This document shows positions 11,553-43,289 of a stretch of DNA of 64,000 nt, in pieces (the stretch's first letter is position 1; each line of letters opens with the position of its first letter). A program made the position numbers and the translations under genes. This DNA is from a virus. The DNA is taken from positions 1-64,000 of IMG/VR virus record IMGVR_UViG_3300025141_014429, one strand, 5' to 3'. Below the pieces are notes generated by a model. It was given only the letters and a program-made list of their open reading frames with translations. It was not told the DNA's origin and did no database searches.

Positions 11553-12017
11553 ATGAATATCAACATTAATGAATATATCAAACTAGTTCACCATATCGCT
11601 CACAAATACCGATGGGCAGGAGCCGCTCATGAGGACTTGGTCAGTGCTGGGATAGAGGGACTAGTTGAGGCTAAGGAGAGATTTGACCCTGAAATGGGGA
11701 ACAAATACATTACTTATGCACATTGGTGGGTCCGAGCTTATATCCAAAAAGCTGTCAATTCTCACATCAAAAATAATCATAAATCATTGAATCAAGAGGA
11801 TAGCCTAGGGCGTCAGGGAATAGATAAGGTTGCTGCTGAATATGAAGCTGATACCGAATCATTGATGGCACCTTATATTGAAAGACTCTTAGCTGTATTA
11901 GCTCTATCTGAGCGTGTTATTATTTCAAAAAGATTTGATTTAAAAGGTCCGATACCCACCAAAAGAGAAGAGGTCCTTGAGGAAGCCCGATCTGAGCTAT
12001 CAGCATTGAAGGTATAA
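11553..12017 (+). CDS. sigma-70-family RNA polymerase sigma factor, short form (region 2 plus truncated region 4)
   Basis: EDLVSAGIEGLVEAKERFDPEMGNKYITYAHWWVR matches region 2; C-terminal LSERVIISKRF without the 4.2 HTH first helix. Confidence 0.85.
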   Translation: MNININEYIKLVHHIAHKYRWAGAAHEDLVSAGIEGLVEAKERFDPEMGNKYITYAHWWVRAYIQKAVNSHIKNNHKSLNQEDSLGRQGIDKVAAEYEADTESLMAPYIERLLAVLALSERVIISKRFDLKGPIPTKREEVLEEARSELSALKV

Positions 12018-12140
12018 AACCCCGATGGTTAGCTAAAAAAAGATAAATAAATACGTGTAAAACTCAATATTTAGAAGTATAATATAACCATATAATAAAA
12101 CAACCCAACAAATCCAAATCAACATACCAAGGAAACAAAT

Positions 12141-13019
12141 ATGACAAATTTTTTAGAAGGAAGCAAGACTGTTAGACCCGAGACACCTATCATTGACAGT
12201 GTAGCAGAATTTACGCCTGATGCACTTAATCAAGACGGTATTTGGGCACATGCTTTCGATGAGTCAAACGACATTGAGATACCAGCGTACTTAGACAATC
12301 CTATCAAAACAGGACTAAGTTATATGGACTACATTCTTGGTGACGCAGGGTTCTATCCAACACAGTGTACCATCTTAACAGGTGACCCTGGATGTGGAAA
12401 GACTACTATGGCTCTCGAGATGGCATCTGCTATGCGTGGGCTCGGCTCTAATGTCGCATTTGCTTCCTGTGAGATGCGAAGAGAGATGGTCGCTAAATTT
12501 CAAAAGCGGCTCAAAGCAGAACATCCGATCAAAGTCATTACAGACAAGATCGTGCGAACTGCTAGAGGTTCTACCCGTGTTCCCTTTGCATCTCACGTTC
12601 CAACTCTCATTGAGACATGCGAGCGAATCCGTGCGCAAGATCCTGATAAGCCGTTCGTCCTCATTATTGATTCCCTTCAGGAGTTAGATGATGGACACTT
12701 CGGGACCGGGCGCAAGACATCGAAGACAGCATATCGTGCGCTGGACCGACTCAACAGTTACTGCAAGCAGACAGAATGTACTTTGATAGTCATTGGTCAG
12801 GTAACAAAGTCGGGTCAAATGGCCGGTAGCAATGATATCAAGCATCTCATCGATGCACATCTTCATCTATCAGTAGAACAAAAGGATGAAGAGATGCGAG
12901 GTGCTAGAATACTCCAAGCAACAAAGAATAGGTTTGCTGGATGCGGTCAGCTGGTGTTCCTCCAGATGAAGTCCGAAGGATTGCAGGAAATCGCACGTCT
13001 CAAGGAGAGCTCTTTATAA
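12141..13019 (+). CDS. radA: RadA/Sms-like RecA-fold ATPase (core domain only)
   Basis: Walker A GDPGCGKTT, Walker B IIDSLQ, GQVTKSGQMAG..DIKHLIDA and KNRF motifs; no N-terminal Zn finger or C-terminal Lon-like domain. Confidence 0.85.
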   Translation: MTNFLEGSKTVRPETPIIDSVAEFTPDALNQDGIWAHAFDESNDIEIPAYLDNPIKTGLSYMDYILGDAGFYPTQCTILTGDPGCGKTTMALEMASAMRGLGSNVAFASCEMRREMVAKFQKRLKAEHPIKVITDKIVRTARGSTRVPFASHVPTLIETCERIRAQDPDKPFVLIIDSLQELDDGHFGTGRKTSKTAYRALDRLNSYCKQTECTLIVIGQVTKSGQMAGSNDIKHLIDAHLHLSVEQKDEEMRGARILQATKNRFAGCGQLVFLQMKSEGLQEIARLKESSL

Positions 13020-13030
13020 GTTATTAGATG

Positions 13031-13116
13031 TGTGTCGTTCATTGGTTGGTTACCTTTATGGGCGGTAGGTAAGAACGACACAAACTCCGATGGTTGGACC
13101 TACCGCCCACTTTTTT
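13031..13116 (+). terminator. intrinsic terminator with a mutually exclusive upstream hairpin (attenuator-like)
   Basis: 12-bp stem 13059-13070/13098-13109 plus T6; alternative 10-bp stem 13031-13040/13073-13082 encloses its 5' arm. Confidence 0.65.
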
Positions 13117-13117
13117 A

Positions 13118-13191
13118 GCACCAATAGCTCAAATGGAAAGAGCATCCGCCTTCTAAGCGGACGGTTGCAGGTTCGAGTCCTGCTTGGTGTA
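13118..13191 (+). tRNA. tRNA-Arg (anticodon TCT), CCA not encoded
   Basis: GCACCAA/TTGGTGT acceptor stem, D-arm AGCTCAAATGGAAAGAGC, anticodon stem TCCGC/GCGGA with loop CTTCTAA, T-loop GTTCGAGTC. Confidence 0.95.
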
Positions 13192-13223
13192 CAGACTTAA
13201 ACATACGAATCGATTCTGGGTTC

Positions 13224-13278
13224 GGGTGCTATGGTAGGATCGGTTCGTTCCTTGGTTGACCATAGCACCCTTTTTTTT
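13224..13278 (+). terminator. intrinsic terminator after the tRNA, with a large loop
   Basis: 12-bp perfect stem GGGTGCTATGGT/ACCATAGCACCC plus T8. Confidence 0.85.
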
Positions 13279-13333
13279 GCGTGTAACTCTCGTGATAACA
13301 AAGTATAATAACAACACATCCAACGGAGGCTCT

Positions 13334-13519
13334 ATGAAAAGAGGTACACATGTAACAATCACACAACACGAAACTGAAAGTGTGGTGGGTCAACAAGGTA
13401 TTATAACAGCTGCACATTGTGTGACAGGATCTGTGAGATATCATGTCAAAACTGAAACAGCTACATATTATTGTTCAGTCACTCAGCTCAAATTAAGTAA
13501 CGCAATTGCGTGCAAATAA
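13334..13519 (+). CDS. small SH3-like hypothetical protein (start revised)
   Basis: promoter unit plus GGAGG SD; stop lies in the next promoter. Confidence 0.65.
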   Translation: MKRGTHVTITQHETESVVGQQGIITAAHCVTGSVRYHVKTETATYYCSVTQLKLSNAIACK

Positions 13520-13569
13520 ACATTAAACCACGTATAATAGATACACACCCAAACAATCAAGGAAATATT

Positions 13570-14169
13570 ATGACCCATACAAAACAACAAGTTCTTGACC
13601 TTCTTCAAGACCCTGACTATGTCGGAGCAGCAATCATTCTTATCGGACAAAATCAGACTCAGGATGAATTGAGAACCAAGCATACCCATAATCTTAATGG
13701 AGAAGGATTCTCAGCCGCATATGCAAAGGTTGGTACAAGGTTTTATGAGTTTGTTACAGGTATTCAAACCTCAACTGGTAAGAAGAAGTGGCAATCCCGA
13801 TCCCTCGCTCACCCAAAAGCTGATCAGATATTTCGTCGTTATATCAACAATCGTGGCTGTAACAATGCTATTGACTATGCTCGTGATATTGCAGCTCTCC
13901 ATTGGAAACAACTAGGTGCTATGTTTGAAGTTGGTTTTACTGTTCCATCATATGACGTTCAAGTTGGAGAACCTGAAGCTGCACCAGCTAAACAAGAACC
14001 AGCACGTATATTGTTGGCTTGCCAGTTTATCAAAGTCAGTGGTAAGGCCGTCCAAGTCAAGATGAATGGGAATGGCAAAAAGATTTGGTTACCAAAGTCT
14101 CAAGTCCAATCAACAGAAGATGGATTGAGTATACCAACATGGTTGGCTTCCAACAAAGGACTCCTGTAA
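13570..14169 (+). CDS. hypothetical early protein (start revised)
   Basis: promoter plus AAGGA SD; C-terminal KKIWLPKSQV small beta domain. Confidence 0.75.
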   Translation: MTHTKQQVLDLLQDPDYVGAAIILIGQNQTQDELRTKHTHNLNGEGFSAAYAKVGTRFYEFVTGIQTSTGKKKWQSRSLAHPKADQIFRRYINNRGCNNAIDYARDIAALHWKQLGAMFEVGFTVPSYDVQVGEPEAAPAKQEPARILLACQFIKVSGKAVQVKMNGNGKKIWLPKSQVQSTEDGLSIPTWLASNKGLL

Positions 14170-14264
14170 GGGGTCCAACTTCATCTTTCATTTTCGTGCA
14201 AAACTCTAATCTAACCCGTATAATATAAACACATAATCCAATAACAACAACCAAGGAGAATATT

Positions 14265-14678
14265 ATGTCATTCAATCAAAAAACCCTTCAAGAGCTTGTA
14301 GATTCAGGCGTCATTACAGCAGCTGATGTTGCTAAGTTTGAAAAACGTCTAGCTCGTTTAGATAAGAAAGCAGCTAAGGAAGCTAGAGCAGCTGAAGTCC
14401 TTACCAAAGTTGGAGATGCTTTTCATGAGCTGACCAAGGAAGGTAATCCAACAAAGCATCGTGCAATTTGGGAAAAAGTTGGTCGTGAAGCTCATAGCCG
14501 TGACGAAGTCCTAGATGCTCTTAGAACTCTACGAGATAACGGAGAAGCCCGTACCTATAAGCTTAGTAACAATAACTTTCAAATCTTTTGGGCTCAACCT
14601 CTACCTGTTGTAGAAGAAGCTGATGAAGATGCAGATGCAGAAGCTCTTGCTGTTATCCCTGGTGTTGATGAGGTTTAG
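14265..14678 (+). CDS. putative winged-helix DNA-binding protein, family B (copy 2)
   Basis: TLQELVDSGVITAADVAKF N-terminus; HRAIWEKVGR...SRDEVLDALRTLRDNGEA is wHTH-like. Confidence 0.55.
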   Translation: MSFNQKTLQELVDSGVITAADVAKFEKRLARLDKKAAKEARAAEVLTKVGDAFHELTKEGNPTKHRAIWEKVGREAHSRDEVLDALRTLRDNGEARTYKLSNNNFQIFWAQPLPVVEEADEDADAEALAVIPGVDEV

Positions 14679-14742
14679 GCCTCATCACCTAGCGTGTAAA
14701 CATCGAAGTTCAGTTGTATAATATAAACATCAAGGAGATAAC

Positions 14743-14922
14743 ATGACAATAACACTTAAATCACTTTTCACTGCCTTCATCTCTCTGGTTATGCCAGGAG
14801 TGGGCCAACTCTTCTATGGAGAACTAGGTTGGGCACTATTTTGGTTTGTAACAGCAATCATCACAGGTGGACTTACAATATGGCCATCAGCAATTCACTG
14901 TCTTTTTTTAGCAAACAAATAG
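14743..14922 (+). CDS. small membrane protein, TM2-like (not in ORF track)
   Basis: 59 aa, ISLVMPGVGQLFYGELGWALFWF; own promoter and AAGGAG SD. Confidence 0.65.
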   Translation: MTITLKSLFTAFISLVMPGVGQLFYGELGWALFWFVTAIITGGLTIWPSAIHCLFLANK

Positions 14923-14931
14923 GAGTATCAC

Positions 14932-15213
14932 ATGAAACTAACAGATCTATCCGCAGCATTAGCTAATCTAACACCGCTAGAACGTACACAAATCGAAGCA
15001 GCAAAGAGTAGCTATATGTTGCATGTTGCTATAGTAACATCTGAATATATTAAGCAAAAGGAAGAGCTGGAAAATTTTGAATTGTTCACCGATCCAGAAG
15101 ATGCCATATCTCAGCAAACACTAGTACTAATCCGTAAGCAGGTCGCAGAGATGGAGATGAAGGTATCACAACTAGCATGTGAGCTGGAGAATCATTTCAA
15201 TATATCAGCGTAA
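14932..15213 (+). CDS. hypothetical coiled-coil protein
   Basis: AGGAG SD; heptad-like C-terminus. Confidence 0.65.
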   Translation: MKLTDLSAALANLTPLERTQIEAAKSSYMLHVAIVTSEYIKQKEELENFELFTDPEDAISQQTLVLIRKQVAEMEMKVSQLACELENHFNISA

Positions 15214-15272
15214 TACGTGTAAAACGATCGATTGACTAGTATAATATAAACACACCAACCAAAGGAAACAAC

Positions 15273-15896
15273 ATGATCACACTACTTATTCTTACAGCAT
15301 GCGGAAACGAAAACCAAATCATTGACACATCCCCACCCTCAGCTAGTGTCGAAGAAGTGACAGAAGAATGTGCACCGGCAGAACAACCTGTCATCAACCT
15401 CACATGTCCGGAAGTGCAGCTAACATGCCCTGAACCGGTTATCAATGTCCAAGTTTCAGCTCCGGATGTACAGGTTGATGTTGCAGCTCCAGATGTCGAT
15501 GTCACTGTGGAAGGCCCTGATATGTCAGGTATAGAAGCAGCAATTGATGAAATGATTGATGCGTTGAGCAGCAATTCTGGCGGCACTTCAGGAGACAAGG
15601 AATGGATATTCTTTGCTAGTGATATAACAGTCGCATCAGGAGATGTTATAACTGCTACAAACACTAGAACCACCGATCTGATCATAACAGAGATAAGACT
15701 ATCCAATACCATTGAATGCTGGATAGAAGGATCTGCAGGTATTATTGCTTACGTTGGGCACAACACCGGTGCACCAACAAATAGTCAACAAGGCTCAAAT
15801 CAACTAAGTCTCCCTATACATCAAGGTGAAACACTATATTGCAGCACCCATGAAAGTGGTGCAGGATACGTATTTGTCAACGGTTACTATCAATAA
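15273..15896 (+). CDS. putative lipoprotein with P/V/D-rich repeat linker
   Basis: very short signal MITLLILTAC (lipobox-like); CPEVQL/CPEPVI/APDVQV/APDVDV/GPD repeats. Confidence 0.6.
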   Translation: MITLLILTACGNENQIIDTSPPSASVEEVTEECAPAEQPVINLTCPEVQLTCPEPVINVQVSAPDVQVDVAAPDVDVTVEGPDMSGIEAAIDEMIDALSSNSGGTSGDKEWIFFASDITVASGDVITATNTRTTDLIITEIRLSNTIECWIEGSAGIIAYVGHNTGAPTNSQQGSNQLSLPIHQGETLYCSTHESGAGYVFVNGYYQ

Positions 15897-16187
15897 CATG
15901 CAAATTCTAGATAGGTATAGTATAATAACAATGCATACCAACTAGGAGTTAAACTATGACAACCATCACCTGGAAGAACCGACAAGGTACACACACTGTA
16001 ACATTCACCCATTCAATCGCACGAGTATTCATAATGAAACTACGAACACTTGGCCTCACCTTTACTCTAACCAAGGAGCTCTAACCATGGGCGCAATCAT
16101 CTTCTTAATCATCTGCTTTATCATGGTCTGTGACATTGCAAATACCCTAGACAAACAATACAACCCCAACAACAAAAGGAAATAAAC

Positions 16188-16454
16188 ATGACTATAAAAC
16201 AGTTATCTGAATACATTAATAAATATAAGAACAATCCACTTGGTGTCTGTGTCGACGCACTTGAGGATATGATACACCGCTTTGATCATCCTGAAGCTGA
16301 CGGCTATGTCTCAGCTATAGTTGGTGACGCTGATGTTCTGCTTATGCGTGCCTATGAAGCTCACAATGCAGCAATTGACTCAGAAGTAGCTACTGAGGTT
16401 CATCTTGGCAACCCTATTTTGCTAGAAGTTGCAAGGCAATGCCCATGTTGTTAG
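16188..16454 (+). CDS. hypothetical protein
   Basis: AAGGA SD. Confidence 0.6.
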   Translation: MTIKQLSEYINKYKNNPLGVCVDALEDMIHRFDHPEADGYVSAIVGDADVLLMRAYEAHNAAIDSEVATEVHLGNPILLEVARQCPCC

Positions 16455-16648
16455 CATTATACAACATCTTTGTTTTAGTTGTGGGATCAGCAGCAATCAT
16501 ATGTGCTTCACTATGTGCTGTTGCTCTCGTCAACATCTTTGCAGCATCTGCAATCACCTACCGCGATGATAAGCTACTACTTGCATGGTCACTACCATGC
16601 ACAATGCTTTTTGTTGGGTTACTTATGATAATGTTAGGTTATATATAG
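16439..16648 (+). CDS. small two-TM membrane protein
   Basis: two hydrophobic stretches; start uncertain. Confidence 0.45.
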   Translation: MPMLLALYNIFVLVVGSAAIICASLCAVALVNIFAASAITYRDDKLLLAWSLPCTMLFVGLLMIMLGYI

Positions 16649-16702
16649 AAGACGTTGATCACGGTTGAACTCCGTCCAACTAAATAGGTTAACCTAGGTA
16701 TA

Positions 16703-16948
16703 ATGAAAGAAGAAGCAACCAACAGCAAAGCTATTGAGGACGCACCACTTCGCGCTGGCGACTTGGTGCTTTGCAAGCTTCGCAATGGATATCAGCGACA
16801 TGTACTAGTGCTGAGTGTAATACCCTATCAGTTATGGAAGGGAGACACCACTGGCTATAGGTACCGCTACAGAGTACTTTATAGACGAGGCACTATCGGT
16901 AAGATGGGATTGCGAAGTCATTGGCTGGTACAGAGAGCTGATGTATGA
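16703..16948 (+). CDS. small SH3/KOW-like protein
   Basis: LRAGDLVLCK motif. Confidence 0.5.
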   Translation: MKEEATNSKAIEDAPLRAGDLVLCKLRNGYQRHVLVLSVIPYQLWKGDTTGYRYRYRVLYRRGTIGKMGLRSHWLVQRADV

Positions 16949-17244
16949 GTGGAGCTGAAAGCACTTTTTTCGTGGGAGATGTGGTTGAATTACTCTTTGA
17001 ATACCGCATGCGGAACGACAATGAATATGATCACAGGTCCCTGCAGCGTGGAATCGTCTTATACGTGGACGAAGTATGGGAAGCTTATACAGTAATGTGG
17101 ACAGACGGAACTGTGAGCCGGAACATGTTCTTGGACGAATGCACAACTCGGTGCATCATTCCAGCGAAAGGAACTTCGCGCTCGAACACAGCACTTCGAA
17201 CTTTGCGCCCGGGAATGCTGCATAGCGGATCTTTGGGGTGGTGA
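16945..17244 (+). CDS. small SH3/KOW-like protein
   Basis: FFVGDVVEL...GIVLYV...YTVMWTDG; ATGA overlap with upstream ORF. Confidence 0.55.
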   Translation: MSGAESTFFVGDVVELLFEYRMRNDNEYDHRSLQRGIVLYVDEVWEAYTVMWTDGTVSRNMFLDECTTRCIIPAKGTSRSNTALRTLRPGMLHSGSLGW

Positions 17245-17257
17245 ATTGAGGTACCTC

Positions 17258-17740
17258 TTACTTAAGTAAGGCAGCAAGCTCCTCACGTGCCTCAGCAAGG
17301 TGAGCTTCTCGTTTAGGTTCTACTTCAAAATCAAAATCAAATCTTCTTGCAATAATAACTCTTTCCTTTACGGAGAGAACTGCCAACATACGGTCCACAT
17401 ATGGGCCCATGATATCTTGCATGCTAGGGCCTGAAGTATCGGGGACCTCAGCTAACTTTTCATGCATAGATTTGCCACAACTGTCTTGCGATTCAATGGA
17501 GACTAAACCACTTTGCGCGCGAATATGACGGTCAGCTGCTTGTTGTACTTTACCCCGTATCCACCACCAAGCGAAGGTAATAAACTTGTTCCCGGTATCC
17601 GGATCGAAACGTTCCTTAGCGATTTGTAAACCCATATATCCCTCTGCGACGAGGTCGTCGTACTCTGCGCCACACCACGCGTATCGCTTCGCCATTTGGT
17701 GGATAAGAGGGACTAGATTTGGATATTCTACATTTGACAT
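17258..17740 (-). CDS. sigma-70-family sigma factor, short form; paralog of 11553..12017
   Basis: DDLVAEGYMGLQIAKERFDPDTGNKFITFAWWWIR; same truncated region 4 (LSVKERVIIARRF...PKREAHLAEAR). Confidence 0.85.
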   Translation of the reverse strand: MSNVEYPNLVPLIHQMAKRYAWCGAEYDDLVAEGYMGLQIAKERFDPDTGNKFITFAWWWIRGKVQQAADRHIRAQSGLVSIESQDSCGKSMHEKLAEVPDTSGPSMQDIMGPYVDRMLAVLSVKERVIIARRFDFDFEVEPKREAHLAEAREELAALLK

Positions 17741-17746
17741 ATTATA

Positions 17747-17840
17747 CTCCTTGGTTGTTTGTATAGATATATTATACCATATTATTTTTAAGTCTGTATC
17801 CGGAACCGGTCAAAAAATGACCAACTTAAAAAAAAGTTTA
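17747..17840 (-). repeat. 94-bp sigma-gene upstream element, copy 2 (inverted)
   Basis: 88% identical to 11452..11545; contains TGGTATAAT and AAGGAG on the minus strand. Confidence 0.9.
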
Positions 17841-17859
17841 AAAAAGTTTTTTGTACTTG

Positions 17860-18000
17860 GAGCTCGAATGTGCGAAGCCGATATGCATCTCGCGCTAAGG
17901 GCTAGGGCGCCTAGGCCCTGCCCGGGGGCGCTGCGTCGGGGCCCGCGTCTAGCCCACCGGCGCGGCCTGCGCCAGCCCCTGGCCCGCCTAAGGACGTTCA
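17860..18000. other. extremely GC-rich palindromic island at the early/late boundary
   Basis: about 110 bp almost entirely G/C with nested inverted repeats (GGGCTAG/CTAGCCC, CTAGG/CCTAG, GGCGC/GCGCC) between divergent transcription units. Confidence 0.75.
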
Positions 18001-18181
18001 CTCTGCTCGAGAATTTTTCAAAAACTTTTAGTACAGCCAGACAACGAAGAGAACGATATATCACGATTATCACACGAAACACACGAAGTAACTCATTTTC
18101 TGCACGGAAGAGCAGTGGCTATAGACCAAAATCAAAAAAAATTCTTCGGGAAAATTTCAAAACTTTTTCCTATTTATATTC

Positions 18182-19564
18182 ATGAAGATTACAAGAAGAC
18201 AACTTAGACAAATCATTGAATCAAGTGTTATCAAGCGAGGCGACGATTACGTCGCTCCCGTTGAAGCCCCACTCACAGATCCGCGAGATTATGATTTTGA
18301 CCTATCAGATGAAAACAAAGAAAAACTCCATGCATTAGCAGGATCAGATCCGAATTCAGGCGGACCGGCTCAGGCAGACAGCTTAGCTGACACCTTAGAT
18401 TTCCCTAGTTCAGGTCGTTTCGGTGCAGATACGCTAAGCATGCAAACAAAAATGTATGACATGGGCTTGGATTTAATTAATGATCCGGAAGTCGATCAAC
18501 TACTAGATCGTGCAATTGAACTCTCTGTTAAAGATAATTATTCAGAACACATAACTGATGATCTCATTTACGTTCTAAATGCAGGTTATAAGTATCCAGA
18601 AGGGCCGGGTGGTTTTCAGTTATTTTTAAATGGTGATCCGGATTTTAATGATGAAAATCTGGATACTGAATGGGGAGGGCTAAATACTACAGTTTTTCAT
18701 CCAGGTCGGCCGGCGATTACCTCTGATCTGATTACCTTTGTCATGAGAAAAATGTACTTCCTAATTGGGATAAAACTCACCGGTATTCAAGATTCAATGC
18801 GCAGGGATGGTACCTCAGCTTTAGAATTGGTCGATGACTTCAGCTCCGATAGAAATGTAGAAGAACTTGCTCCGGAATACTTGAAGCAACGTTTTGAAAA
18901 GTTTGAGAAAGTCAAAGAATTATTTAAAAAAAGAACATCGAAGGCAAGATATCCTGCGGTTGCTCAGCATGTATACGACAAGTTGATGAAGCCAATGTAC
19001 GAGATATTCACCTCAGCTCATAAAGCTTATAAGCATGTTGACCCAGAGATAGACATGAGCCAAATCAAAGAGAGTAAGTTAGGAGACAACATGAAGCTAA
19101 ACAGAAAATCACTGCGCCGACTCATTATGGAAGAAATCGAAATTCTTGCAGAAGCGCCAGAAAACTCGCCCTTTCCTTATCGCGCAAAGGTCATGCTCGG
19201 TCTAGTACCTGGTGTGGACGTTTTACCAACTAGTGCAGTTGAAGAGCCATGGAATTCAGATGATGATGAACATCGAGCACTCTATGTCGCGCTACAAGAT
19301 CTAGGTGACATTGTCATGCCCGGATCACAAAACAGCACAGGTCAAGTTCAACTCAGGCAGGAAAAACTACGAGGTGGTGAGCGCTTACCCTTTCTTATGG
19401 ATAAGCTTAACATTGCAAAGAGTATCATCATGGATTCTGTCGATCCTTCTACAGAAAGAAAATGGTTTGTTAGAGAGGAAGACGCTCTAGTCCACTTTAT
19501 TACAGAACTAGGGCGTGTACTAACTAGAGAATCAGGCGGTCCGGACTTTAGCGTACTACAGTAG
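18182..19564 (+). CDS. hypothetical virion-type protein with conserved N-terminal leader and an internal in-frame second leader at 19091
   Basis: MKITRRQLRQIIES; internal AGGAG SD plus ATG giving MKLNRKSLRRLIMEE. Confidence 0.75.
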   Translation: MKITRRQLRQIIESSVIKRGDDYVAPVEAPLTDPRDYDFDLSDENKEKLHALAGSDPNSGGPAQADSLADTLDFPSSGRFGADTLSMQTKMYDMGLDLINDPEVDQLLDRAIELSVKDNYSEHITDDLIYVLNAGYKYPEGPGGFQLFLNGDPDFNDENLDTEWGGLNTTVFHPGRPAITSDLITFVMRKMYFLIGIKLTGIQDSMRRDGTSALELVDDFSSDRNVEELAPEYLKQRFEKFEKVKELFKKRTSKARYPAVAQHVYDKLMKPMYEIFTSAHKAYKHVDPEIDMSQIKESKLGDNMKLNRKSLRRLIMEEIEILAEAPENSPFPYRAKVMLGLVPGVDVLPTSAVEEPWNSDDDEHRALYVALQDLGDIVMPGSQNSTGQVQLRQEKLRGGERLPFLMDKLNIAKSIIMDSVDPSTERKWFVREEDALVHFITELGRVLTRESGGPDFSVLQ

Positions 19565-19571
19565 GTTAATA

Positions 19572-19664
19572 ATGAAACTTACAAGAGTACAATTGCGAAG
19601 TCTGATAGACGAGCTCATGAGCTTAGACTACCAATTAACACCCGTTGTAATTGCAAATCGATAA
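19572..19664 (+). pseudogene. leader-only remnant (MKLTRVQLRSLIDE...) running into the convergent gene
   Basis: 30-aa ORF, not in track; only the leader motif is recognisable and the rest overlaps 19628..20164. Confidence 0.5.
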
Positions 19665-20164
19665 TAGTCCTTCACATCGGGTATATAAGCCACATGAACA
19701 GGTACACTAAACTTACCTGCCTGCTGTGTCCATCCTACAGCAGTTACTAAATGAAAATAATGTTCCTGATTAGATGGGTCATATATAGTACCATTCACGC
19801 CCACACCTAGCTGTAGAGCCTCGTTGATCTCGAAGCCTACCAATACATTAGCACTAGGTGCTAGTACACTCTGGTCAATACCAGAGACCATGATGTTTTG
19901 TATATAGAGGATATCTAGCCAGTCACCCCCATGCATTGTCTGCTGCATCTCGAATCCGAGTGAAACCATATGTGGACTTTCTAGTCTGTCGCTTGTGTCA
20001 GCTTTATTTGCGTAAGTGTAGCCAAAACGCATACCTTTTCTCGTCGTCCATTCTTCACCCGTCAGGTCATACACTTCATCGTTTTTTGCATATGATATAG
20101 TGGGTATCATTGTGAAGATAATTGTTATCAGTACTATGATTAATCCTATGAAATTCTTTAACAT
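19628..20164 (-). CDS. secreted, probable outer-membrane beta-barrel-like protein
   Basis: signal peptide ending in ISYA, alternating beta-strand pattern, C-terminal ...TTGVNW; AAGGAG SD. Confidence 0.55.
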   Translation of the reverse strand: MLKNFIGLIIVLITIIFTMIPTISYAKNDEVYDLTGEEWTTRKGMRFGYTYANKADTSDRLESPHMVSLGFEMQQTMHGGDWLDILYIQNIMVSGIDQSVLAPSANVLVGFEINEALQLGVGVNGTIYDPSNQEHYFHLVTAVGWTQQAGKFSVPVHVAYIPDVKDYYRFAITTGVNW

Positions 20165-20275
20165 AGTGTCTCCTTTATAATAGATTGATTCAATTATAAC
20201 CGGTCAATACAAGAAGTACTAACTAATTTATAACTTTTGCAAATTATTTCATATTTATCGATAGAGGGGTATCTT

Positions 20276-24233: not shown

Positions 24234-25253
24234 TTATCTTCTTCGATCCCAAATTCTTGCGTTATTTCTTTTCTTTTGTTTTTTTGCTGCGTAATATAAT
24301 CTTTTAAATGCATTTCGTACATTTTCATTTCCAGATCCTAAGTTTGACATATATTGTAGATTTTCCTCTAATTCTCTGTCATACTGGTTATCAAATCCGC
24401 TTTTTCTAACATTTTTATACCACGTATTTAAAAGCCATATAAAATTCTCTTTTAGCGCTTTCTTTTCTGACATACTATAGTCAGTGTAATTTTTAAGCTC
24501 TTCTAAGTATGTATTAAAGAAATCTTTCATATTGTTAATGGCATCAAATTTATCGCCCATATTATCTTCATCTTCATAGTATCCTATCTTGTAACCTAAT
24601 TCAATAACAAGATTGTAAAAATGATCCATCATATCAACACCTGTATCTAAACTTGATATGAGATTATAAGACATTCTACCGGATCCTGGTGCCGCATTTG
24701 TATCAAAAAATCCGGCATCCAACATTTGTTGAAACCATGTTTCTTTTGTCCTAGAGTCTATCGGTGCCATTAACCAATCTACTGTTTTTAAAAATTCCGC
24801 AGCTGCTGACTGTGCTGAGGATATCCTCCTATCAGCATTTCTTATTGGGGGGCTCACGTTGCGTGCCATGTTACATAGTGAAATATAAGCCTTAAGAAAT
24901 TCTTTGGCGTTCTGTATTTTTACAATATTTTGTGCGCCGGCAGCTAATTCTTGCATGGAATGTTGTTGTTGCTCTTGTTGTTGCTCTTCCTGCGCTAAAA
25001 TAATTTCTTCAGCTTGAGAAAAGCTCATCAAACCATCATCAACTTTTCCAAGAATATTAAAAATATTTCCCAAATCTTGGAAAGATTTACTTGCTGTAGG
25101 GTCAGGATTCTTATCCGGATGATAAGTTCTAGCAAATTCCCTATACTTGCTTTTAAAATCATTTTTTTCATATGCATCAAGCAAATCTTGTTTTTGTTTC
25201 TGGCTTAATTGTTCACTAATTAATATTTTGATAATTAATTTATCTACGAGCAC
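24234..25253 (-). CDS. J-domain (DnaJ-like) protein with leader-like N-terminus
   Basis: YREFARTYHPDKNP..ASKSFQDLGNIFNIL with HPD motif; poly-Q linker; MLVDKLIIKILISEQ. Confidence 0.8.
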   Translation of the reverse strand: MLVDKLIIKILISEQLSQKQKQDLLDAYEKNDFKSKYREFARTYHPDKNPDPTASKSFQDLGNIFNILGKVDDGLMSFSQAEEIILAQEEQQQEQQQHSMQELAAGAQNIVKIQNAKEFLKAYISLCNMARNVSPPIRNADRRISSAQSAAAEFLKTVDWLMAPIDSRTKETWFQQMLDAGFFDTNAAPGSGRMSYNLISSLDTGVDMMDHFYNLVIELGYKIGYYEDEDNMGDKFDAINNMKDFFNTYLEELKNYTDYSMSEKKALKENFIWLLNTWYKNVRKSGFDNQYDRELEENLQYMSNLGSGNENVRNAFKRLYYAAKKQKKRNNARIWDRRR

Positions 25254-35104: not shown

Positions 35105-35199
35105 AATATTACTTAACTTTCTGTGGAGAAAATGACACTTTTTTTTATTAATTTAACTTTAGCAAACCCTACATGATAATTAATATCAGGAGTGAAATT

Positions 35200-35892: not shown

Positions 35893-36011
35893 ATAATATT
35901 ATTAATAAGATAATACAGAACTATAATCTACTTTTACAAATTAAATTTAAATTAATTTATTTTTGTAAATTCAGTATTTATGATTTAAATTAATTCTAAG
36001 AGGTTTATATA

Positions 36012-37190
36012 ATGTCAATATTTAAAGAACATAAAACTATAGCAGATAGATCAGCTACAGATAGAAGAAGACATAAAAAGAAAATAGAAAAAGCTATCAA
36101 GGAAGGTATTCATGATATTATTGCTGAAGAGAATATTATTGGAAAAGATGGCAAGAAGAAAATAAAAATTCCTGTAAGAGGTATTAAAGAATTCAGGTTT
36201 ATATACAATGATGAGCCGGGAAATGGCCAAAAAAAGGTAGGATCAGCACAAGGTAAAAATATATCAAAAGGACAAAAAATATCTAGTGGTAAACAAAAGA
36301 AGGGTAAAGGTAAAAAAACAGATAAACCGGGTAATGAATCAGGTGATGAATACTATGAGGTAGAAATTTCTTTAGAAGAATTAGCAAATTATCTTTTTGA
36401 TGATTTAGACTTGCCTGAATTGGAAAAGAAGAATTTCACTAATATTGTTAGTGAAAAGTATAAAAGAAAAGGTTACAGACCTCAAGGTATAAGGCCTAGA
36501 TTATCAAAAAAAGAGACAATTAAAAATAAAATTCGTAGAAAGAAAAAAGCAATAAAGACAGGCACATATGATCCTGAGTCTGAAGAAAGATTCACATTTC
36601 ACGAAAGTGATCTAAAATACAAACACATTGCAGTTACACAAAAAGAAGTTACAAATGCTGTGATATTTTTTATCATGGATGTCTCAGGATCAATGGGGAA
36701 AACTAAGAAATTTCTTGCAAGAAGCTTTTTCTTCTTATTGTATCAATTCTTAAGACATAGATATCAAAAAGTAGAAATTGTTTTTATATCACACACAACA
36801 GAAGCATGGGAAGTTGATGAGGAACAATTCTTTTCTAGGGGCTCATCAGGAGGTACATTCATAAGTTCAGGAATAGAAAGATGCTTAGAGATAATAACAC
36901 AGCGATACTCGCCTGAAAATTGGAACATATATAGTTTTCACTGCAGTGATGGTGATAACTGGTCAGAAGATAATAAAAAAGCATTAGATTTAACTGATCA
37001 ACTAAAAGAAATGTGTCAATTATGTGCATATATCCAAATACTGGGTAGGAATAGTTTCGGTGCCGGAGACGGTAATAAGATGGCAGATGTATATGATCAA
37101 ATGCAGGATAAGAAATTTAAAGTTTCTAAAATAAACAATAAGAAAGATGTTTGGCCTGAATTTGCTAAGTTATTTGGAGGTAAATTATGA
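36012..37190 (+). CDS. yeaH: YeaH/YhbH (DUF444) vWA-domain protein
   Basis: DRRRHKKKIE, IMDVSGSM MIDAS motif, SGGTFISS, HCSDGDNW. Confidence 0.9.
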   Translation: MSIFKEHKTIADRSATDRRRHKKKIEKAIKEGIHDIIAEENIIGKDGKKKIKIPVRGIKEFRFIYNDEPGNGQKKVGSAQGKNISKGQKISSGKQKKGKGKKTDKPGNESGDEYYEVEISLEELANYLFDDLDLPELEKKNFTNIVSEKYKRKGYRPQGIRPRLSKKETIKNKIRRKKKAIKTGTYDPESEERFTFHESDLKYKHIAVTQKEVTNAVIFFIMDVSGSMGKTKKFLARSFFFLLYQFLRHRYQKVEIVFISHTTEAWEVDEEQFFSRGSSGGTFISSGIERCLEIITQRYSPENWNIYSFHCSDGDNWSEDNKKALDLTDQLKEMCQLCAYIQILGRNSFGAGDGNKMADVYDQMQDKKFKVSKINNKKDVWPEFAKLFGGKL

Positions 37191-38509
37191 CATGGAAGAT
37201 AAATGATCTTACTAGTTGGGATGATAAAATCATAGAAATTGCTAAAAAATACAATTTAGACTGGTATGATATCAACTATGAGATATGTGATTATTACGAA
37301 ATGATGGGTCATATGTCATATCACGGCATGCCAAGTCATTACAATCACTGGAGTTATGGAAAGTCATTCGAACAAACACGACAACTTTACAATTTAGGAG
37401 CACAAGGTCTACCATACGAATTAATTATAAATTCAGACCCATCTATAGCTTATCTCATGAGACAAAATGATTTATATCTTCAGATATTAATTATGGCACA
37501 CTGTATTGGTCATAGTGATTTTTTTAAAAATAATCGCTGTTTTCAGCATACAGATGCAAAAAATATTGTAGCTAAATTTAGAAATGCAAGAAATAGAATT
37601 CAAAAATATTCCGAAGATCCCAGTATAGGAATTGATGTTGTTGAAGAATTTATTGATTGTTTACATAGTATAAGATTCCAAACATGCAGACATAATATTC
37701 CACGTAAATCAAAAAATCAAATCAAACGTGATCTGATTAAAAAATACAACAAGGATAAAAACAACCAATTGATTAAGAAAGTATCCTTGAATAGATTAGA
37801 ATCATCACAACTATTAGAAGATGATCATGATTTGCTTTCATTTTTACTAGAATACGGAACACATTTTGAAGATTGGCAACTAGATATAATTAATATAGTT
37901 AGAGAAGACAGCATGTATTTTATTCCTCAAATAAAGACAAAGATACTTAATGAGGGATGGGCTTCTTTTTGGCATTATAAAATTCTTCATGAGTTGGAAT
38001 TGCCACAAGAATATCATATTCCTTTTTTGAAAATGCATAATGCAGTAGTCAGACCTCATATAGGTGGAATCAATCCTTATCATGTAGGCTTTTATCTTTT
38101 TCAAAAAATTGAAAAAGAAATGGGATTAGATGAATGTTTTCTAATACGAGAAGTGCACGACGATGAATCAGCGATAAGAATGTATTTAGATGAAGATGAT
38201 TTTAGAAAATTAAACTTGTTTACATATTCAAAAGATAAAAATAATGATACTTTTATCGATGAAGTATCAGATCATGATGACTGGAAAGTTGTTAGAAATA
38301 CACTGCTGCAGAACACCGGTGTTAATTCAATCCCAAGAATATATGCACATGATATAAAGAAAGATAAGTCATTGGTTCTTAAGCACGATCATGACGGAAG
38401 AGATCTAGACTTAGAATATGCTGATAAAGTTATTGAAAACGTTCGACATCTCTGGCCAGAAGGCGCAGTTCTTTTTACTGTAATAGAAGATGAGATATGG
38501 GAAATATAG
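37187..38509 (+). CDS. spoVR: SpoVR/YcgB family protein
   Basis: GMPSHYNHWSYGKSF, YELIINSDP, MAHCIGHSDFFKNN, KILNEGWASFWH. Confidence 0.92.
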   Translation: MTWKINDLTSWDDKIIEIAKKYNLDWYDINYEICDYYEMMGHMSYHGMPSHYNHWSYGKSFEQTRQLYNLGAQGLPYELIINSDPSIAYLMRQNDLYLQILIMAHCIGHSDFFKNNRCFQHTDAKNIVAKFRNARNRIQKYSEDPSIGIDVVEEFIDCLHSIRFQTCRHNIPRKSKNQIKRDLIKKYNKDKNNQLIKKVSLNRLESSQLLEDDHDLLSFLLEYGTHFEDWQLDIINIVREDSMYFIPQIKTKILNEGWASFWHYKILHELELPQEYHIPFLKMHNAVVRPHIGGINPYHVGFYLFQKIEKEMGLDECFLIREVHDDESAIRMYLDEDDFRKLNLFTYSKDKNNDTFIDEVSDHDDWKVVRNTLLQNTGVNSIPRIYAHDIKKDKSLVLKHDHDGRDLDLEYADKVIENVRHLWPEGAVLFTVIEDEIWEI

Positions 38510-38576
38510 GGTAAACTTTTTTTAATATATAGTTATAATAGTATATGACAGCAATTAATTTCATAGGAAAATAAAA

Positions 38577-40511
38577 ATGGCCAACAAAGATTTTTTAAAA
38601 ATTATCAAAAAGCAGAGATCAAAAAGCAAGAAAAAGAAATTTCAAGGTACTCTTTTAGAGTATTTAGATATCATACAGGAAGATCCTAGCGCAGTTCAAT
38701 TAGCTCATAGAAGACTTTATGATGTAATTAATAATAAAGGTTGCAAAACAGTTGATATTGATGACGATGGTTACAGAGGCATCTTTAATGGTGATAAGAT
38801 TAGAACATATGATTATTTTAAAGAAGAATTCTTTGGAATGGAACTCATCATCAATAAGCTTATGAGGTATATGAAATCAGCTGCACTTAAAGGTGAAGAA
38901 TCTAGACAAGTACTTTTACTTATGGGGCCGGTAGGTGCAGGTAAATCAGCACTAACAGAGCATGTTAAAAGAGCACTTGAACTAGCAGAACCTGCATATC
39001 ATTTAGATGGTTGTCCAATTCGTGAAGAACCTCTTCATTTAATTCCTAGAAGTTTAAGACCTGAATTTGAAAAAATACTTGGTGTTAAAATTGAAGGTGA
39101 TCTATGCCCTATTTGTCGTCATAGGCTTATCAATGATTTTAATGGAGAGTATGAAAAATTTCCAGTTAAACAATCATCATTTTCACAAAGAGGACGAAGA
39201 GGTATTGCAACAGTGCCGCCTATGGATGCAAATTCACAGGATGTATCTGTTTTAATCGGAACTGAAGATATTAGTAAACTAGATCTTTATCCAGAAGATG
39301 ATCCTAGAGTATTATCGCTGAATGGTGCATTCAATGTGGGTAATAGAGGAATAGTAGAATTTGTTGAGGTATTTAAAAATGAAATTGAGTTTTTGCATAC
39401 TATGTTAACAGCAACTCAAGAAAAGCGTGTACCTTCGCCAGGTAAAAACGATATGATCTATTTTGATGGAGTCATATTATCCCATTGTAATGAAGCAGAG
39501 TGGAACAGATTTAAAGGTGAACACACGAATGAGGCTATTTTAGACAGGGTCATGAGAATAGAAGTACCTTACGTGCTAGAACTAGATCAAGAAATGAAAA
39601 TTTATGAAAAGATGATAAATAGATCTGATTTCAAAGGTGCACATATTGCACCGCATACTATTAAAATTGCATCGATGTTCTCAATAATGTCACGACTTAA
39701 AACGTCAAACAAGTGTGATATCCTTACTAAAATGAAAATATATAATGGTGAAGATATTATAGAAAAAGGAAAAGTAAGAAAAGTAGACATTAGAGACTTA
39801 AAAGATGAAGCAAGAAAAGAAGGGATGACGGGTATATCTACAAGATTTATTATGAAAGCCCTAGATGCAGCATTATCTGATTCTGACAGGAATATGATCA
39901 CTCCAATAAGTGTAATGGAAAGTCTAAGTAAACAAGTCAAAGAACAAATAATTGCTGAAGATGTTAAGGAAACTTACTTAGAAATAATCCAAAAGATAAT
40001 AAGGGAAGAATACCTTCGAATTCTAGAAACTGAAATAGCTAAAGCATTTATCACTGCTTACGAAGAACAAGCACAATCATTGTTTGAATCTTATCTTGAT
40101 AATGCAGAGTGTTACACAACAGGTGCTAACGTCAAGGATAAGATAACAAGAGAAGAACGTGAACCTGATGAAAAATTCATGAAGTCTATAGAAGAAATGA
40201 TAGGTGTTGTAGGTTCTGCACGTGACGGGTTCAGATCAGATGTTACTTCATATATGTTTTCTAAGATGAGAAGAGGAGAAACTATTGATTTTAAATCGTA
40301 TGGACCACTCAGAGAAGCAATCGAAGAATATATGATAATGTCAGTTAAAGATATATCTAGAATTGTAACTAGATCTAGATCAAGAGATGATGATCAAAAG
40401 AAAAAGTATAGTGAAATGGTCAGTACGTTGATTGAAGAGTATGGGTATGATGAATGGTCAGCTGAAGAAATACTGACTTATGCTTCAAATAACCTCTGGA
40501 GAGACTCATAA
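38577..40511 (+). CDS. prkA: PrkA/YeaG family AAA+ serine protein kinase/ATPase
   Basis: LLLMGPVGAGKS Walker A, GCPIREEPL, GAFNVGNRGIVEFVE, AILDR, GISTRF. Confidence 0.93.
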   Translation: MANKDFLKIIKKQRSKSKKKKFQGTLLEYLDIIQEDPSAVQLAHRRLYDVINNKGCKTVDIDDDGYRGIFNGDKIRTYDYFKEEFFGMELIINKLMRYMKSAALKGEESRQVLLLMGPVGAGKSALTEHVKRALELAEPAYHLDGCPIREEPLHLIPRSLRPEFEKILGVKIEGDLCPICRHRLINDFNGEYEKFPVKQSSFSQRGRRGIATVPPMDANSQDVSVLIGTEDISKLDLYPEDDPRVLSLNGAFNVGNRGIVEFVEVFKNEIEFLHTMLTATQEKRVPSPGKNDMIYFDGVILSHCNEAEWNRFKGEHTNEAILDRVMRIEVPYVLELDQEMKIYEKMINRSDFKGAHIAPHTIKIASMFSIMSRLKTSNKCDILTKMKIYNGEDIIEKGKVRKVDIRDLKDEARKEGMTGISTRFIMKALDAALSDSDRNMITPISVMESLSKQVKEQIIAEDVKETYLEIIQKIIREEYLRILETEIAKAFITAYEEQAQSLFESYLDNAECYTTGANVKDKITREEREPDEKFMKSIEEMIGVVGSARDGFRSDVTSYMFSKMRRGETIDFKSYGPLREAIEEYMIMSVKDISRIVTRSRSRDDDQKKKYSEMVSTLIEEYGYDEWSAEEILTYASNNLWRDS

Positions 40512-40515
40512 AGTC

Positions 40516-41802
40516 ATGGACTTTATTGAACTTAAAGACAAGGAATTCCTAGAAAAATTACTTAGAGAGGAATACAAATCTTTTAAAAATTCTAGTGAAG
40601 ATGATACAGTTTATGAAAAAGGCTTTTTAGTAAAAGGAAAGTCTTTCAATTACTTAAATTCAAAAAGTGGAAATGAATCACAAAGTATATTTAGACCCCT
40701 GATAACAAATATATTTTCTGATTTAGAGTCGATTTATCCAGGACTAGGAGAACAATTTATTGATATTACTATGTCAGAAATTTCCAAACCCGGGTTTAAA
40801 GATGAGAAATTATCTGATATTGAAAACAGTATTAGTGAAATGATCAATGTAGTAAAGTCCAAGTCGATCAATATGTGTAAAAATGACTTTAGATATTTTG
40901 TTACAAATGAAATTTCTAAATGTAACAGAAAAATAATAAGAACAATTGTAGATAATATGAGAGTTTCTACAAGACTTTTTATTGAAGAAAGTCATATTGA
41001 TAAAAATATTATTCTTAAAACAAATAGTATAACATTTAATTTAGACTTTGATGGTGATTTTTTATTAAATAAACAAAAATGGGAAGCTAAAGACTATAAT
41101 TTTGTTATTATAGATGGTTTTATAGATACAGTAGGTGAAATATATCATCTGTTGCAAAATGCAAGTGAAAATAAAGAACCTTATGTAATATTTTGCAAAG
41201 GAATGAGCCCAGAGGTCAAAGATGTATTTTTGCAAAATTTAAAAAGAAGAACAATAAATGTTTTTCCTGTTTCGCTAGATATCAATGAATTGAATGTTAA
41301 TATTCTTATTGATTTTGCAATGCTTCATGGATCAGATGTTGTTAGTTCATTAAAAGGTGAAACAATATCAATAGCAATAAGGCGAAAACTTAAGAAAGGA
41401 CAAAAAATAAGCATAGATAAAAACGGAATTAATTTTAAACCATTAATATCCGACAACATTATTGCAAGGCATGTAGAATACTTAGAAAAAAGAAAAGCAG
41501 CGTCTAGTATAGAAGTAAATACAGAAATATTAGAAAAAAGAATAAAGATGTTATCAGCTGATAAAATTATATTAAAAATAGATAAAAGTGACAGTATTTT
41601 GGCAAGAGATGTAAAAAAGACTTTGTTCTTTCTTAAAACAGGATCTTCGGGAGTGTTTTACGGTAAGAAAAATCATATTACAGAATTAAAGATAATTCCA
41701 ACATACTCAATAATTCATCTACTTAAGAAAACTTTGTCATTCTTAAAAACAATTTACACTATTGATTGCGCAGTTATAATTAGAAAGAAAACTGGTCAAT
41801 AG
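40516..41802 (+). CDS. degenerate GroEL/Cpn60-like protein (start revised)
   Basis: FVIIDGFIDTVGEIYHLLQNASENKEPYVIFCKGM...LIDFAMLHGSDVVS...LEKRIKMLS aligns with the GroEL apical and intermediate domains; GDGTTT motif absent. Confidence 0.7.
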   Translation: MDFIELKDKEFLEKLLREEYKSFKNSSEDDTVYEKGFLVKGKSFNYLNSKSGNESQSIFRPLITNIFSDLESIYPGLGEQFIDITMSEISKPGFKDEKLSDIENSISEMINVVKSKSINMCKNDFRYFVTNEISKCNRKIIRTIVDNMRVSTRLFIEESHIDKNIILKTNSITFNLDFDGDFLLNKQKWEAKDYNFVIIDGFIDTVGEIYHLLQNASENKEPYVIFCKGMSPEVKDVFLQNLKRRTINVFPVSLDINELNVNILIDFAMLHGSDVVSSLKGETISIAIRRKLKKGQKISIDKNGINFKPLISDNIIARHVEYLEKRKAASSIEVNTEILEKRIKMLSADKIILKIDKSDSILARDVKKTLFFLKTGSSGVFYGKKNHITELKIIPTYSIIHLLKKTLSFLKTIYTIDCAVIIRKKTGQ

Positions 41803-41810
41803 GAGAAATA

Positions 41811-42038
41811 ATGGCTTTAAAAGAATCTGATGTTACGAGATCATTTATAACAGTAGTTAGTCACGTAAAAAATCAAACAAAAAACAATGTTGTATTGGCA
41901 CATCAAAAAGGTATGTTTGGAGAGCTTAATAAGAGTCAAATTGAAAGAATATGCAATATTATTGAAAGCTCAATTGAACAAGCAGCAACTGCTGCTATAG
42001 CTTCAGAAGCAAGAGGATTAGCAAAAGCTTCAGAATAG
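41811..42038 (+). CDS. hypothetical protein
   Basis: AGGAG SD, in operon. Confidence 0.7.
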   Translation: MALKESDVTRSFITVVSHVKNQTKNNVVLAHQKGMFGELNKSQIERICNIIESSIEQAATAAIASEARGLAKASE

Positions 42039-42041
42039 TCT

Positions 42042-42533
42042 ATGACCAAGTACAAAGGAATTAAGCATCTTATTGAATGTCATTGTATTTTACCTCAATA
42101 CAAGCGGCGAGATCCGCCTTTTTATCATAAATTTACTGTGTACTCTAAAATAATAGATGGTTTAGTTTATGAAAAATATGCACAATGTAATAATTGTGAC
42201 ATTGTGCATAAAGTTTTTGATATATGCAAATCTGAAATAGTTGTAGGTAAAGAAGAGTTTAATACAGGTTTGACAATATCTGACATGTCTCTACAGTTGT
42301 CAGATAAATTAAGTATGCTACTTTCTAATAGTAACTGTGACTATGCAACATGGGAACATGTACTTGATATCATAGATGAAGAAAGGTGGGAAGAACCTGT
42401 TGTAATTAAAAGAGAAATAGTAGATGATAAGACAGTTGTAAAAATTTTAAAAATACAATCAGGTGAAAGAATTAAGATACAGACAAAAACTATAGAGGAT
42501 CAATTAGTAGGAGAGTACTATGAAAATAGGTAA
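42042..42533 (+). CDS. putative zinc-binding protein
   Basis: IECHC, CNNC..VH, C motifs. Confidence 0.6.
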   Translation: MTKYKGIKHLIECHCILPQYKRRDPPFYHKFTVYSKIIDGLVYEKYAQCNNCDIVHKVFDICKSEIVVGKEEFNTGLTISDMSLQLSDKLSMLLSNSNCDYATWEHVLDIIDEERWEEPVVIKREIVDDKTVVKILKIQSGERIKIQTKTIEDQLVGEYYENR

Positions 42534-42789
42534 AACAGAAAGTGAGAAAGATATCAAAAATATCCAAGAGTCTAGAGAAATTGTTAAAACTATAATAGAT
42601 TACGGTGTCAATGAAGAGCATAAGGTGAACATACTTTATTTTTTATCTCTTGAATTAGAAAATAGATCTGCGCTTGAGGATATAACTAAAATTTTAAAAA
42701 AATATAGGTCTGGTATTAAACCTGATGAAGAATCACAGTATGATGATAAAGAACCTGATGGCGATAATAGAAAGCTATTAGGGGTTTGA
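42520..42789 (+). CDS. hypothetical protein
   Basis: AGGAG SD, overlaps upstream gene. Confidence 0.65.
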   Translation: MKIGKTESEKDIKNIQESREIVKTIIDYGVNEEHKVNILYFLSLELENRSALEDITKILKKYRSGIKPDEESQYDDKEPDGDNRKLLGV

Positions 42790-42808
42790 CAAATTTAAGG
42801 AGTGAAAA

Positions 42809-43012
42809 ATGTCTGAATCAAACTTACTTTTAGGACAGTGGGAAGAGTTGAAAACTTTAGTTGAGTCCCTAGAGAGCGATATACAAAAAAACGCTGTCAA
42901 AGGAAATAAATCAGCAGGAGTTAGAGTTAGAAAAGGTCTAAGGCTAGTAAAAAAGCAAGCTACAGAACTGGTCAAAGCAACACTAAATAATGACAAAGCA
43001 GAAGAAGCTTAG
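42809..43012 (+). CDS. histone H1-like protein, Hc1 family
   Basis: WEELKTLVESLESD..K..KGNKSAGVRVRKGLRLVKK matches the Hc1 pattern; AAGGAG SD. Confidence 0.7.
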   Translation: MSESNLLLGQWEELKTLVESLESDIQKNAVKGNKSAGVRVRKGLRLVKKQATELVKATLNNDKAEEA

Positions 43013-43037
43013 TATTTATATTTTCCATAATTTGTTT

Positions 43038-43066
43038 AAAAGCTCACTTTATGTGAGCTTTTTTTT
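43038..43066. terminator. bidirectional intrinsic terminator
   Basis: AAAAGCTCAC-TTTAT-GTGAGCTTTT plus T run, between convergent genes. Confidence 0.85.
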
Positions 43067-43289
43067 ATAAATTAATTTTCTTTTTAATCTTTTTAAGAAC
43101 TTGTTTTTCTATTTGACAAATTCTCATTCTTGTTACATTAAAAAGATTCCCTATATCTTGAAGGGTCCATTCTTTTCTTTTTGTTCCTACAATTACACAA
43201 TTACCAGATGATTTATCTTTGATCCAATATCTGCACGCTTTTAATTTACAGCCTGTGCAATTTTGTTCTTGAAACTTATAACATTTCAT
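43065..43289 (-). CDS. stand-alone sigma-70 region 4 HTH protein with Cys-rich N-terminus (start revised)
   Basis: WTLQDIGNLFNVTRMRICQIEKQVLKKI versus sigma70 TLEEVG..FDVTRERIRQIE.KALRKL; AAGGAG SD before ATG 43289. Confidence 0.8.
   Translation of the reverse strand: MKCYKFQEQNCTGCKLKACRYWIKDKSSGNCVIVGTKRKEWTLQDIGNLFNVTRMRICQIEKQVLKKIKKKINL

Follow-up and report, generated by a model that had tools for sequence, protein, structure and literature searches.

To our knowledge, sigma factors divided between two polypeptides are known from a handful of systems, none of which divides region 4 itself. The established cases are T4 gp55/gp33, SPO1 gp33/gp34, SigO-RsoA and Tn916 Sig7-Sig8, and none of these splits at the boundary of regions 4.1 and 4.2 or uses a subunit in which a four-cysteine (Cys4) module accompanies region 4.2. 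Here we describe a 64,000-nucleotide stretch of viral DNA (the window), the first 64 kb of the 123-kb IMG/VR virus record IMGVR_UViG_3300025141_014429, in which two sigma factors, here named SigA and SigB, end after region 4.1, and a stand-alone gene encodes a mini-protein made of a Cys4 head followed by the helix-turn-helix (HTH) of region 4.2. We are highly confident that this is a clean fission of region 4, with both halves conserved and no fused form. That the fission at 4.1/4.2 leaves the mini-protein to provide -35 reading in trans to the 4.2-less sigmas is a proposal whose chances we consider evenly balanced. A literature search found no paper describing the present split or the RMRICQ motif in the recognition helix of the mini-protein.

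T4 gp55 with gp33 (and the gp45 clamp) resembles our locus in being a phage system in which the sigma function is shared by a region-2-like protein and a small RNA polymerase-binding protein. T4 gp33 has no homology to sigma4 and reads no DNA, and a -35 element is lacking from T4 late promoters, whereas at our locus the small partner is a genuine 4.2 HTH, 4.1 is retained in the sigma and a -35-type box is part of the promoters. In Bacillus subtilis SigO-RsoA and Tn916 Sig7-Sig8, too, two proteins give regions 2 and 4, and both associate with RNA polymerase. Their splits, however, lie in or beside region 2 and not, as here, at the 4.1/4.2 boundary; at our locus, moreover, the two genes lie far from each other and the small subunit carries a Cys4 head. 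The genes of SigO-RsoA and of Sig7-Sig8 are adjacent.

All three genes lie where a preliminary description of this DNA, made from the letters alone, had placed them (Table 1), and its claim that both sigmas lack the 4.2 HTH was borne out. The only Pfam domain matched by SigA and SigB is Sigma70_r2 (PF04542; E 5.7e-12 and 4.1e-14, 45.7 and 52.6 bits, above the curated cut-off of 24); neither has a complete region 4, and no region-4 match (PF04545, PF08281) appeared in them even at E ≤ 1. In alignment to the solved RpoS and RpoD structures, region 2 matches (E about 1e-12), as does a second, weak stretch that covers the 4.1 motif only (LSERVIISKRFDLKG against L..RE.V..RFGL), where similarity ends; the motif SERVIISKRFD is present in the alignment to RpoS. 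Homologues of SigA of 154-155 amino acids are known at 78-89% identity. In an AlphaFold2 model of SigA, built from a 15-sequence alignment, the sigma2 part compares with sigma70 at a Z of 11 over 68 residues (34-37% identity), and the C-terminus consists of three helices (101-114, 118-127 and 138-153), modeled with moderate confidence (predicted local distance difference test, pLDDT, about 70-78), one fewer than in the four-helix sigma4 domain. The C-terminus is not predicted to fold into a complete HTH, a fold that the preliminary description had named as refuting its idea. The preliminary description had also let both proteins jump from 4.1 to the last helix of the HTH: one terminal helix is indeed there but, because related sigmas end in F-P-I-T-x-x-E tails, it may be a remnant of the first rather than the last HTH helix. 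Six-frame searches of the whole 123-kb record with PF04545 and PF08281 at E ≤ 1 found no region-4 segment besides the mini-protein gene, which excludes a hidden 4.2 exon, a frameshift or read-through.

The HTH missing from the sigmas is encoded, as had been proposed, by the stand-alone gene. The sole Pfam match of the mini-protein is Sigma70_r4 (PF04545; E 1.2e-9, 37.9 bits against a curated cut-off of 24.1), over profile positions 12-50 only. Over 31 residues it shares about 50% identity with the 4.2 HTH of primary sigmas (RpoD, bacterial SigA, RpoS), from which it differs in being free-standing, in carrying Met and Cys where these have the equivalents of E585 and R588, and in its N-terminal Cys4 module, which matched no known fold. 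The recognition helix reads TRMRICQIEK, the helices of region 4.1 are absent, and no part of sigma4 aligns with the first 32 residues. AlphaFold2 yields a compact predicted fold (pLDDT 90.4; helices 3-10, 32-38, 43-49 and 54-73), in which residues 33-74 superpose on residues 565-606 of Escherichia coli sigma70 (40 residues, root-mean-square deviation 3.2 Å, 38% identity), with a Z of just 2.3 owing to the short stretch. Neither Foldseek nor VIA-wide returned a similar solved structure for the first 32 residues (Z at most 3.3), and an Atlas search with the mini-protein returned its own viral family only. The Cys4 head is probably a metal site. Their spacing is C-x10-C-x4-C-x11-C, whereas the WhiB motif is C-Xn-C-X2-C-X5-C; this spacing rules out a WhiB-like identity, and Pfam Whib is not matched. 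The WhiB-like Fe-S proteins and the Cys-rich extension of OrbS are comparable in that they, too, are cysteine clusters with a functional link to sigma region 4.

The RMRICQ helix and the Cys-rich N-terminus, which the preliminary description had singled out, are features of a whole family. In an alignment of 51 members, mostly 36-55% identical to the mini-protein of the window, the four cysteines and TRMRICQxEK are invariant or nearly so. Close relatives number 20 in marine metagenomes (74-81 amino acids) and the viral contigs hold 250 loci, while a profile search of 1.84 billion representatives gave 147 clusters at E ≤ 1e-10, nearly all of them stand-alone proteins of 40-145 amino acids. Among the best 150 profile matches are three long proteins, in which the HTH alone was matched; no fused form of sigma and mini-protein was found in the full profile search, nor in a word search of longer proteins, which is weak evidence. 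The mini-protein is absent from the 50,697 GenBank phage records searched. RpoD-like sigmas are present in 144 of those records, and in the two jumbo phages checked they are full-length, with 4.2 intact.

The complementary half of the split was observed in the relatives. Thirty large viral records carrying the mini-protein were searched for sigmas, and eight of them, including both records of at least 99% completeness, gave a strong Sigma70_r2 match. Seven of these eight sigmas are RpoD-like: they have regions 1.2, 2, 3 and 4.1, and 28-31 residues follow RFG(L/I) before the protein stops. The remaining one, from G004, is short. In a region-4 profile search that covered ten of these records, every mini-protein matched Pfam r4 positions 12/19-49, seven of the eight sigmas matched positions 1-18/20 only, and the short sigma of G004 had no region-4 match. 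The two-part sigma claimed earlier thus stands as far as the Pfam profile goes, the two proteins being exactly complementary (1-18/20 against 19-49). Truncated RpoD-like sigmas form a family of 342 viral loci. Of the best 80, 79 stop 9-59 residues past RFG[LIV], and the tail often reads F/Y-P-I/V-T/S-x-x-E, which the tails of SigA and SigB resemble. Region 4.1 and its hydrophobic core residues remain near the bacterial consensus in the phage sigmas.

Co-occurrence in related phages, a check that the preliminary description had named, gave both genes in all five near-complete genomes (G005, G012, G038, G048 and a 306-kb contig), so that its idea withstood this check as well as that of the C-terminal fold. 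In the reciprocal test, the mini-protein was found in both sigma-selected records of at least 92% completeness. The 306-kb phage contig, mis-binned in a bacterial metagenome-assembled genome (MAG), has the same split (r4 positions 1-18 plus 18-50), and four genuine bacterial sigmas of the same MAG, an internal control, match positions 1-50. Among fragmentary records, the more complete ones are more likely to hold both genes, a trend that fits two core genes which we estimate from coordinates to lie about 0.3-0.55 genome apart. As expected of a split sigma, two proteins jointly carry the sigma2 and sigma4 determinants, and their genes co-occur.

A non-canonical -35 box, also claimed earlier, exists and stands at canonical spacing. 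The pattern CGTGYAA-N15-18-TATAAT has 22 matches in the window against 0.02 expected, all on the + strand, and most of these promoters carry a TG-extended -10. The nearest one upstream of sigA is at 10888-10917, and another lies downstream of sigA at 12054-12083. A looser pattern, KTGYAA-N16-18-TATAAT, for which reversed-pattern controls gave 0-2 matches, was counted 28 times forward and 0 reverse in the genome of the window (G000), 17 and 0 in G038, 0 and 11 in G001, and 5 and 8 in G048. Similar promoters are present in five relatives; G005 and G006 have a TGTAA variant, TTCTGTAAAAAA followed by TGGTATAAT, whose box stands 2 bp farther upstream. Because the ten genomes sampled from the clade span about 33% to 59% GC, the TGYAA box looks lineage-specific, not host-specific, and this favours a phage-encoded reader. 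The 22 promoters are near-identical (CGTGYAA-N17-TGTATAATATAAA), each ahead of small open reading frames (ORFs) without known function, and their array, which coincides with the higher-GC part of the contig, looks like an early or host-takeover region. On reading the sequence upstream of sigB, no TGYAA box was seen at the -35 of the extended -10 element.

Table 1. Positions of the genes and promoter elements of the window discussed in the text.
Feature	Position	Strand	Description
SigA	11553..12017	+	154 aa; sigma70 region 2, 4.1 motif, one terminal helix, no 4.2 HTH
SigB	17258..17740	-	160 aa; SigA paralogue, 45% identity, same architecture
Mini-protein	43065..43289	-	74 aa; Cys4 head (C3, C14, C19, C31), then sigma70 region 4.2 HTH
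22-promoter region	892..15245	+	class CGTGYAA-N15-18-TATAAT, mostly TGTATAAT; pattern search
Extended -10 element upstream of sigB	17771..17779	-	TGGTATAAT; putative, consensus match only
Mini-protein gene promoter	43323..43352	-	TTGTTC-N18-TATAAT, TG extension; putative, consensus match only
Hc1 histone-H1-like protein	42809..43012	+	67 aa; Pfam Hc1 E 5.6e-12
PIN-PhoH protein	43366..44688	+	Pfam PIN_4 plus PhoH

Functional reading in trans is the most economical interpretation of these results. The domain architecture, the complementarity, the co-occurrence, the invariant helix and the promoter class are observed; the assembly of mini-protein and sigma, the binding of the TGYAA box and the binding of metal by the cysteines are inferred. 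We propose that a fission at the 4.1/4.2 boundary became fixed among uncultured jumbo phages of one clade. Their sigmas, RpoD-like in relatives and of the short SigA/SigB type here, retain region 2, for -10 recognition and core binding, and region 4.1, the main contact with the beta-flap, and terminate in a short helix. The -35-reading HTH persists as a separate protein of about 75 amino acids, scaffolded in the model by its own Cys4 head. This protein would join the RNA polymerase holoenzyme whose sigma lacks 4.2, perhaps by way of the conserved sigma tail or of 4.1 plus the flap, and then read a -35-type box with the core TGYA(A/C) about 17-19 bp upstream of the extended -10. T4 AsiA plus MotA offers a comparison, since there too the sigma no longer reads the -35 itself and an upstream box is recognised by another DNA-binding protein, although there is no sequence similarity and here the sigma is phage-encoded and genetically truncated, not remodelled. 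MotA docks on the C-terminal tail of sigma70. By analogy, docking could take place on the tail that the truncated sigmas conserve, a reasonable alternative drawn purely from this likeness.

Several observations weigh against this proposal. In the model of the mini-protein its own helices pack on the HTH, so that the fold is predicted to be self-contained: the mini-protein has no obvious need of sigma 4.1, and the refolding of sigma4 from two fragments, that is, simple fragment complementation, is not indicated. Gene adjacency or co-transcription, as in SigO-RsoA and Sig7-Sig8, was not found, the distance between sigma and mini-protein genes being 26-32 kb here and about 94-182 kb in relatives, and co-occurrence is expected of any two core genes of one clade. 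The promoter class is not enriched in G025, G026 or G013, and in G012 (59% GC) the signal is weak (8 against 1, with a pattern picked post hoc). TGYAA-type promoters immediately precede the truncated sigma genes of G001, G005, G006 and G038, and the one nearest to sigA lies about 640 bp upstream of it; with sigma genes behind such promoters, the host polymerase must fire this class at least initially, without phage sigma. Finally, no relatives of the short SigA/SigB type were found among the viral contigs, and the short sigma of G004 resembles SigA and SigB in build.

Some of these points lead to a different interpretation, which we regard as possible though rather unlikely, that the mini-protein is an autonomous, metal-stabilised HTH regulator derived from sigma 4.2 and not a sigma subunit, the 4.2-less sigmas using extended -10 promoters that need no -35 contact. 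Such a regulator might silence early promoters by covering their -35 region, or activate transcription in the manner of MotA. The self-contained predicted fold and the position of the sigma genes behind this promoter class are consistent with it, as is the TG-extended -10 of nearly all promoters of the class, given that sigma70 promoters with an extended -10 can work without -35 contact; moreover, the mini-protein gene is always transcribed against its neighbours, suggesting a separate timing. An autonomous regulator leaves unexplained, however, why every sigma lost exactly the piece that the mini-protein keeps and why 4.1, with its hydrophobic core residues, stays so close to the bacterial consensus. 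We consider it improbable that there is no functional link at all, the two being core genes of one phage lineage and their complementarity a historical leftover: this would agree with genes that lie far apart and with a co-occurrence that equals clade membership, but strong purifying selection has maintained complementary loss and retention in genomes of 33-59% GC and in both types of sigma. It is very improbable that the mini-protein targets the host polymerase, by occupying the beta-flap or competing with region 4 of host sigma70, which would silence -35-dependent host promoters and favour the extended -10 promoters of the phage with an outcome like that of T4 AsiA or gp33, because, closely as it mimics primary-sigma 4.2 and suited as the phage promoters would be, it is without 4.1, the main flap-binding part according to sigma70 genetics, and its invariant DNA-contact helix argues for DNA reading and not for protein binding alone.

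The surroundings of the mini-protein gene are conserved. An AAGGAG ribosome-binding site (43295-43300) lies 6 nt upstream of its start. The PIN-PhoH gene is adjacent and divergent in 80 of 80 related loci, and the Hc1 gene is convergent in 75 of the 80; this conserved Hc1 neighbour may point to a link with the nucleoid or with DNA compaction. In many relatives a palindromic TGTACA/CTGTACA box is found about 40-70 nt upstream of the mini-protein gene (loci L010, L018, L021, L029, L033, L036, L058 and L083), which may indicate autoregulation. Upstream of sigB, an island of about 120 bp with 78-85% GC (17880-18000) lies within an AT-rich spacer; Rfam gave no match for it, and it is predicted to fold no better than shuffled sequence.

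CheckV estimates the record to be 41% complete, which corresponds to a phage genome of about 300 kb. GC content is 0.38-0.44 across the first 20 kb and about 0.31-0.35 beyond, and the cause of this step near 20 kb (about 0.40 in 1-20000, about 0.31 in 20001-64000) is unexplained. A chimeric assembly was rejected as its cause, since the DnaB/KaiC-like (helicase-like) gene adjoining sigA has homologues of 33-47% identity in three relatives that carry the mini-protein, and the contig was therefore treated as one genome. At the DNA level, GenBank phages match this genome in tRNAs only, and no cultured relative was found. Six matches to prokaryote genomes, all in MAGs of unrelated taxa, are probably mis-binned phage contigs; the unrelated taxa rule out inferring a host from them.

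Other genes were observed in the record. Beyond the window, a weak gp55-like late-sigma candidate of 266 amino acids (record 70385-71185, L096:1408-2208; phrog_234 E 3.4e-5) is directly followed by an ORF of 122 amino acids (record 71192-71560, L096:2215-2583). The acidic-aromatic tails of the two (DDFNVFIT and DDIFNQIEG) recall clamp-binding motifs, and a search for family matches at E ≤ 0.001 gave none for the pair. A tRNA-Arg(TCT) gene (13118-13192) stands among the early-type promoters, and a complete YeaH (DUF444)-SpoVR-PrkA trio occupies 36012-40511 (Pfam E 1e-113 to 1e-142). YeaH-SpoVR-PrkA is normally a bacterial operon tied to stress or sporulation. The genes shared by or frequent in the "moraphage" lineage include a sigma factor, a "mediator of transcription", PhoH and DnaJ (PMC12619734), and this lineage, judged by that gene list, may overlap the present clade. 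A DnaJ (J-domain) protein on the minus strand (24234-25253) and a cluster of glycosyltransferase and methyltransferase genes (47031-55974) are features that the window has in common with it.

In conclusion, the trans-acting arrangement invites a further, speculative extension that we hold to be doubtful, in which one 4.2 subunit would serve several sigma2-bearing partners of the same phage, namely RpoD-like sigmas, SigA, SigB and perhaps a gp55-like factor. In this combinatorial system a Cys4 protein, separately timed and sensitive to metal or redox state, would do the -35 reading on a phage-specific TGYA(A/C) box, independently of host sigma specificity across very different hosts. If -35 reading in trans is true, flap docking and -35 reading would be separable onto different polypeptides, and these phages would offer a natural system for studying the assembly of sigma4 on RNA polymerase. 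It would also give a function to a frequent viral family of "Sigma70_r4 domain" ORFans and might account for the way in which an uncultured phage lineage, large and cosmopolitan, controls its transcription through promoters that look specific to the lineage and not to the host.

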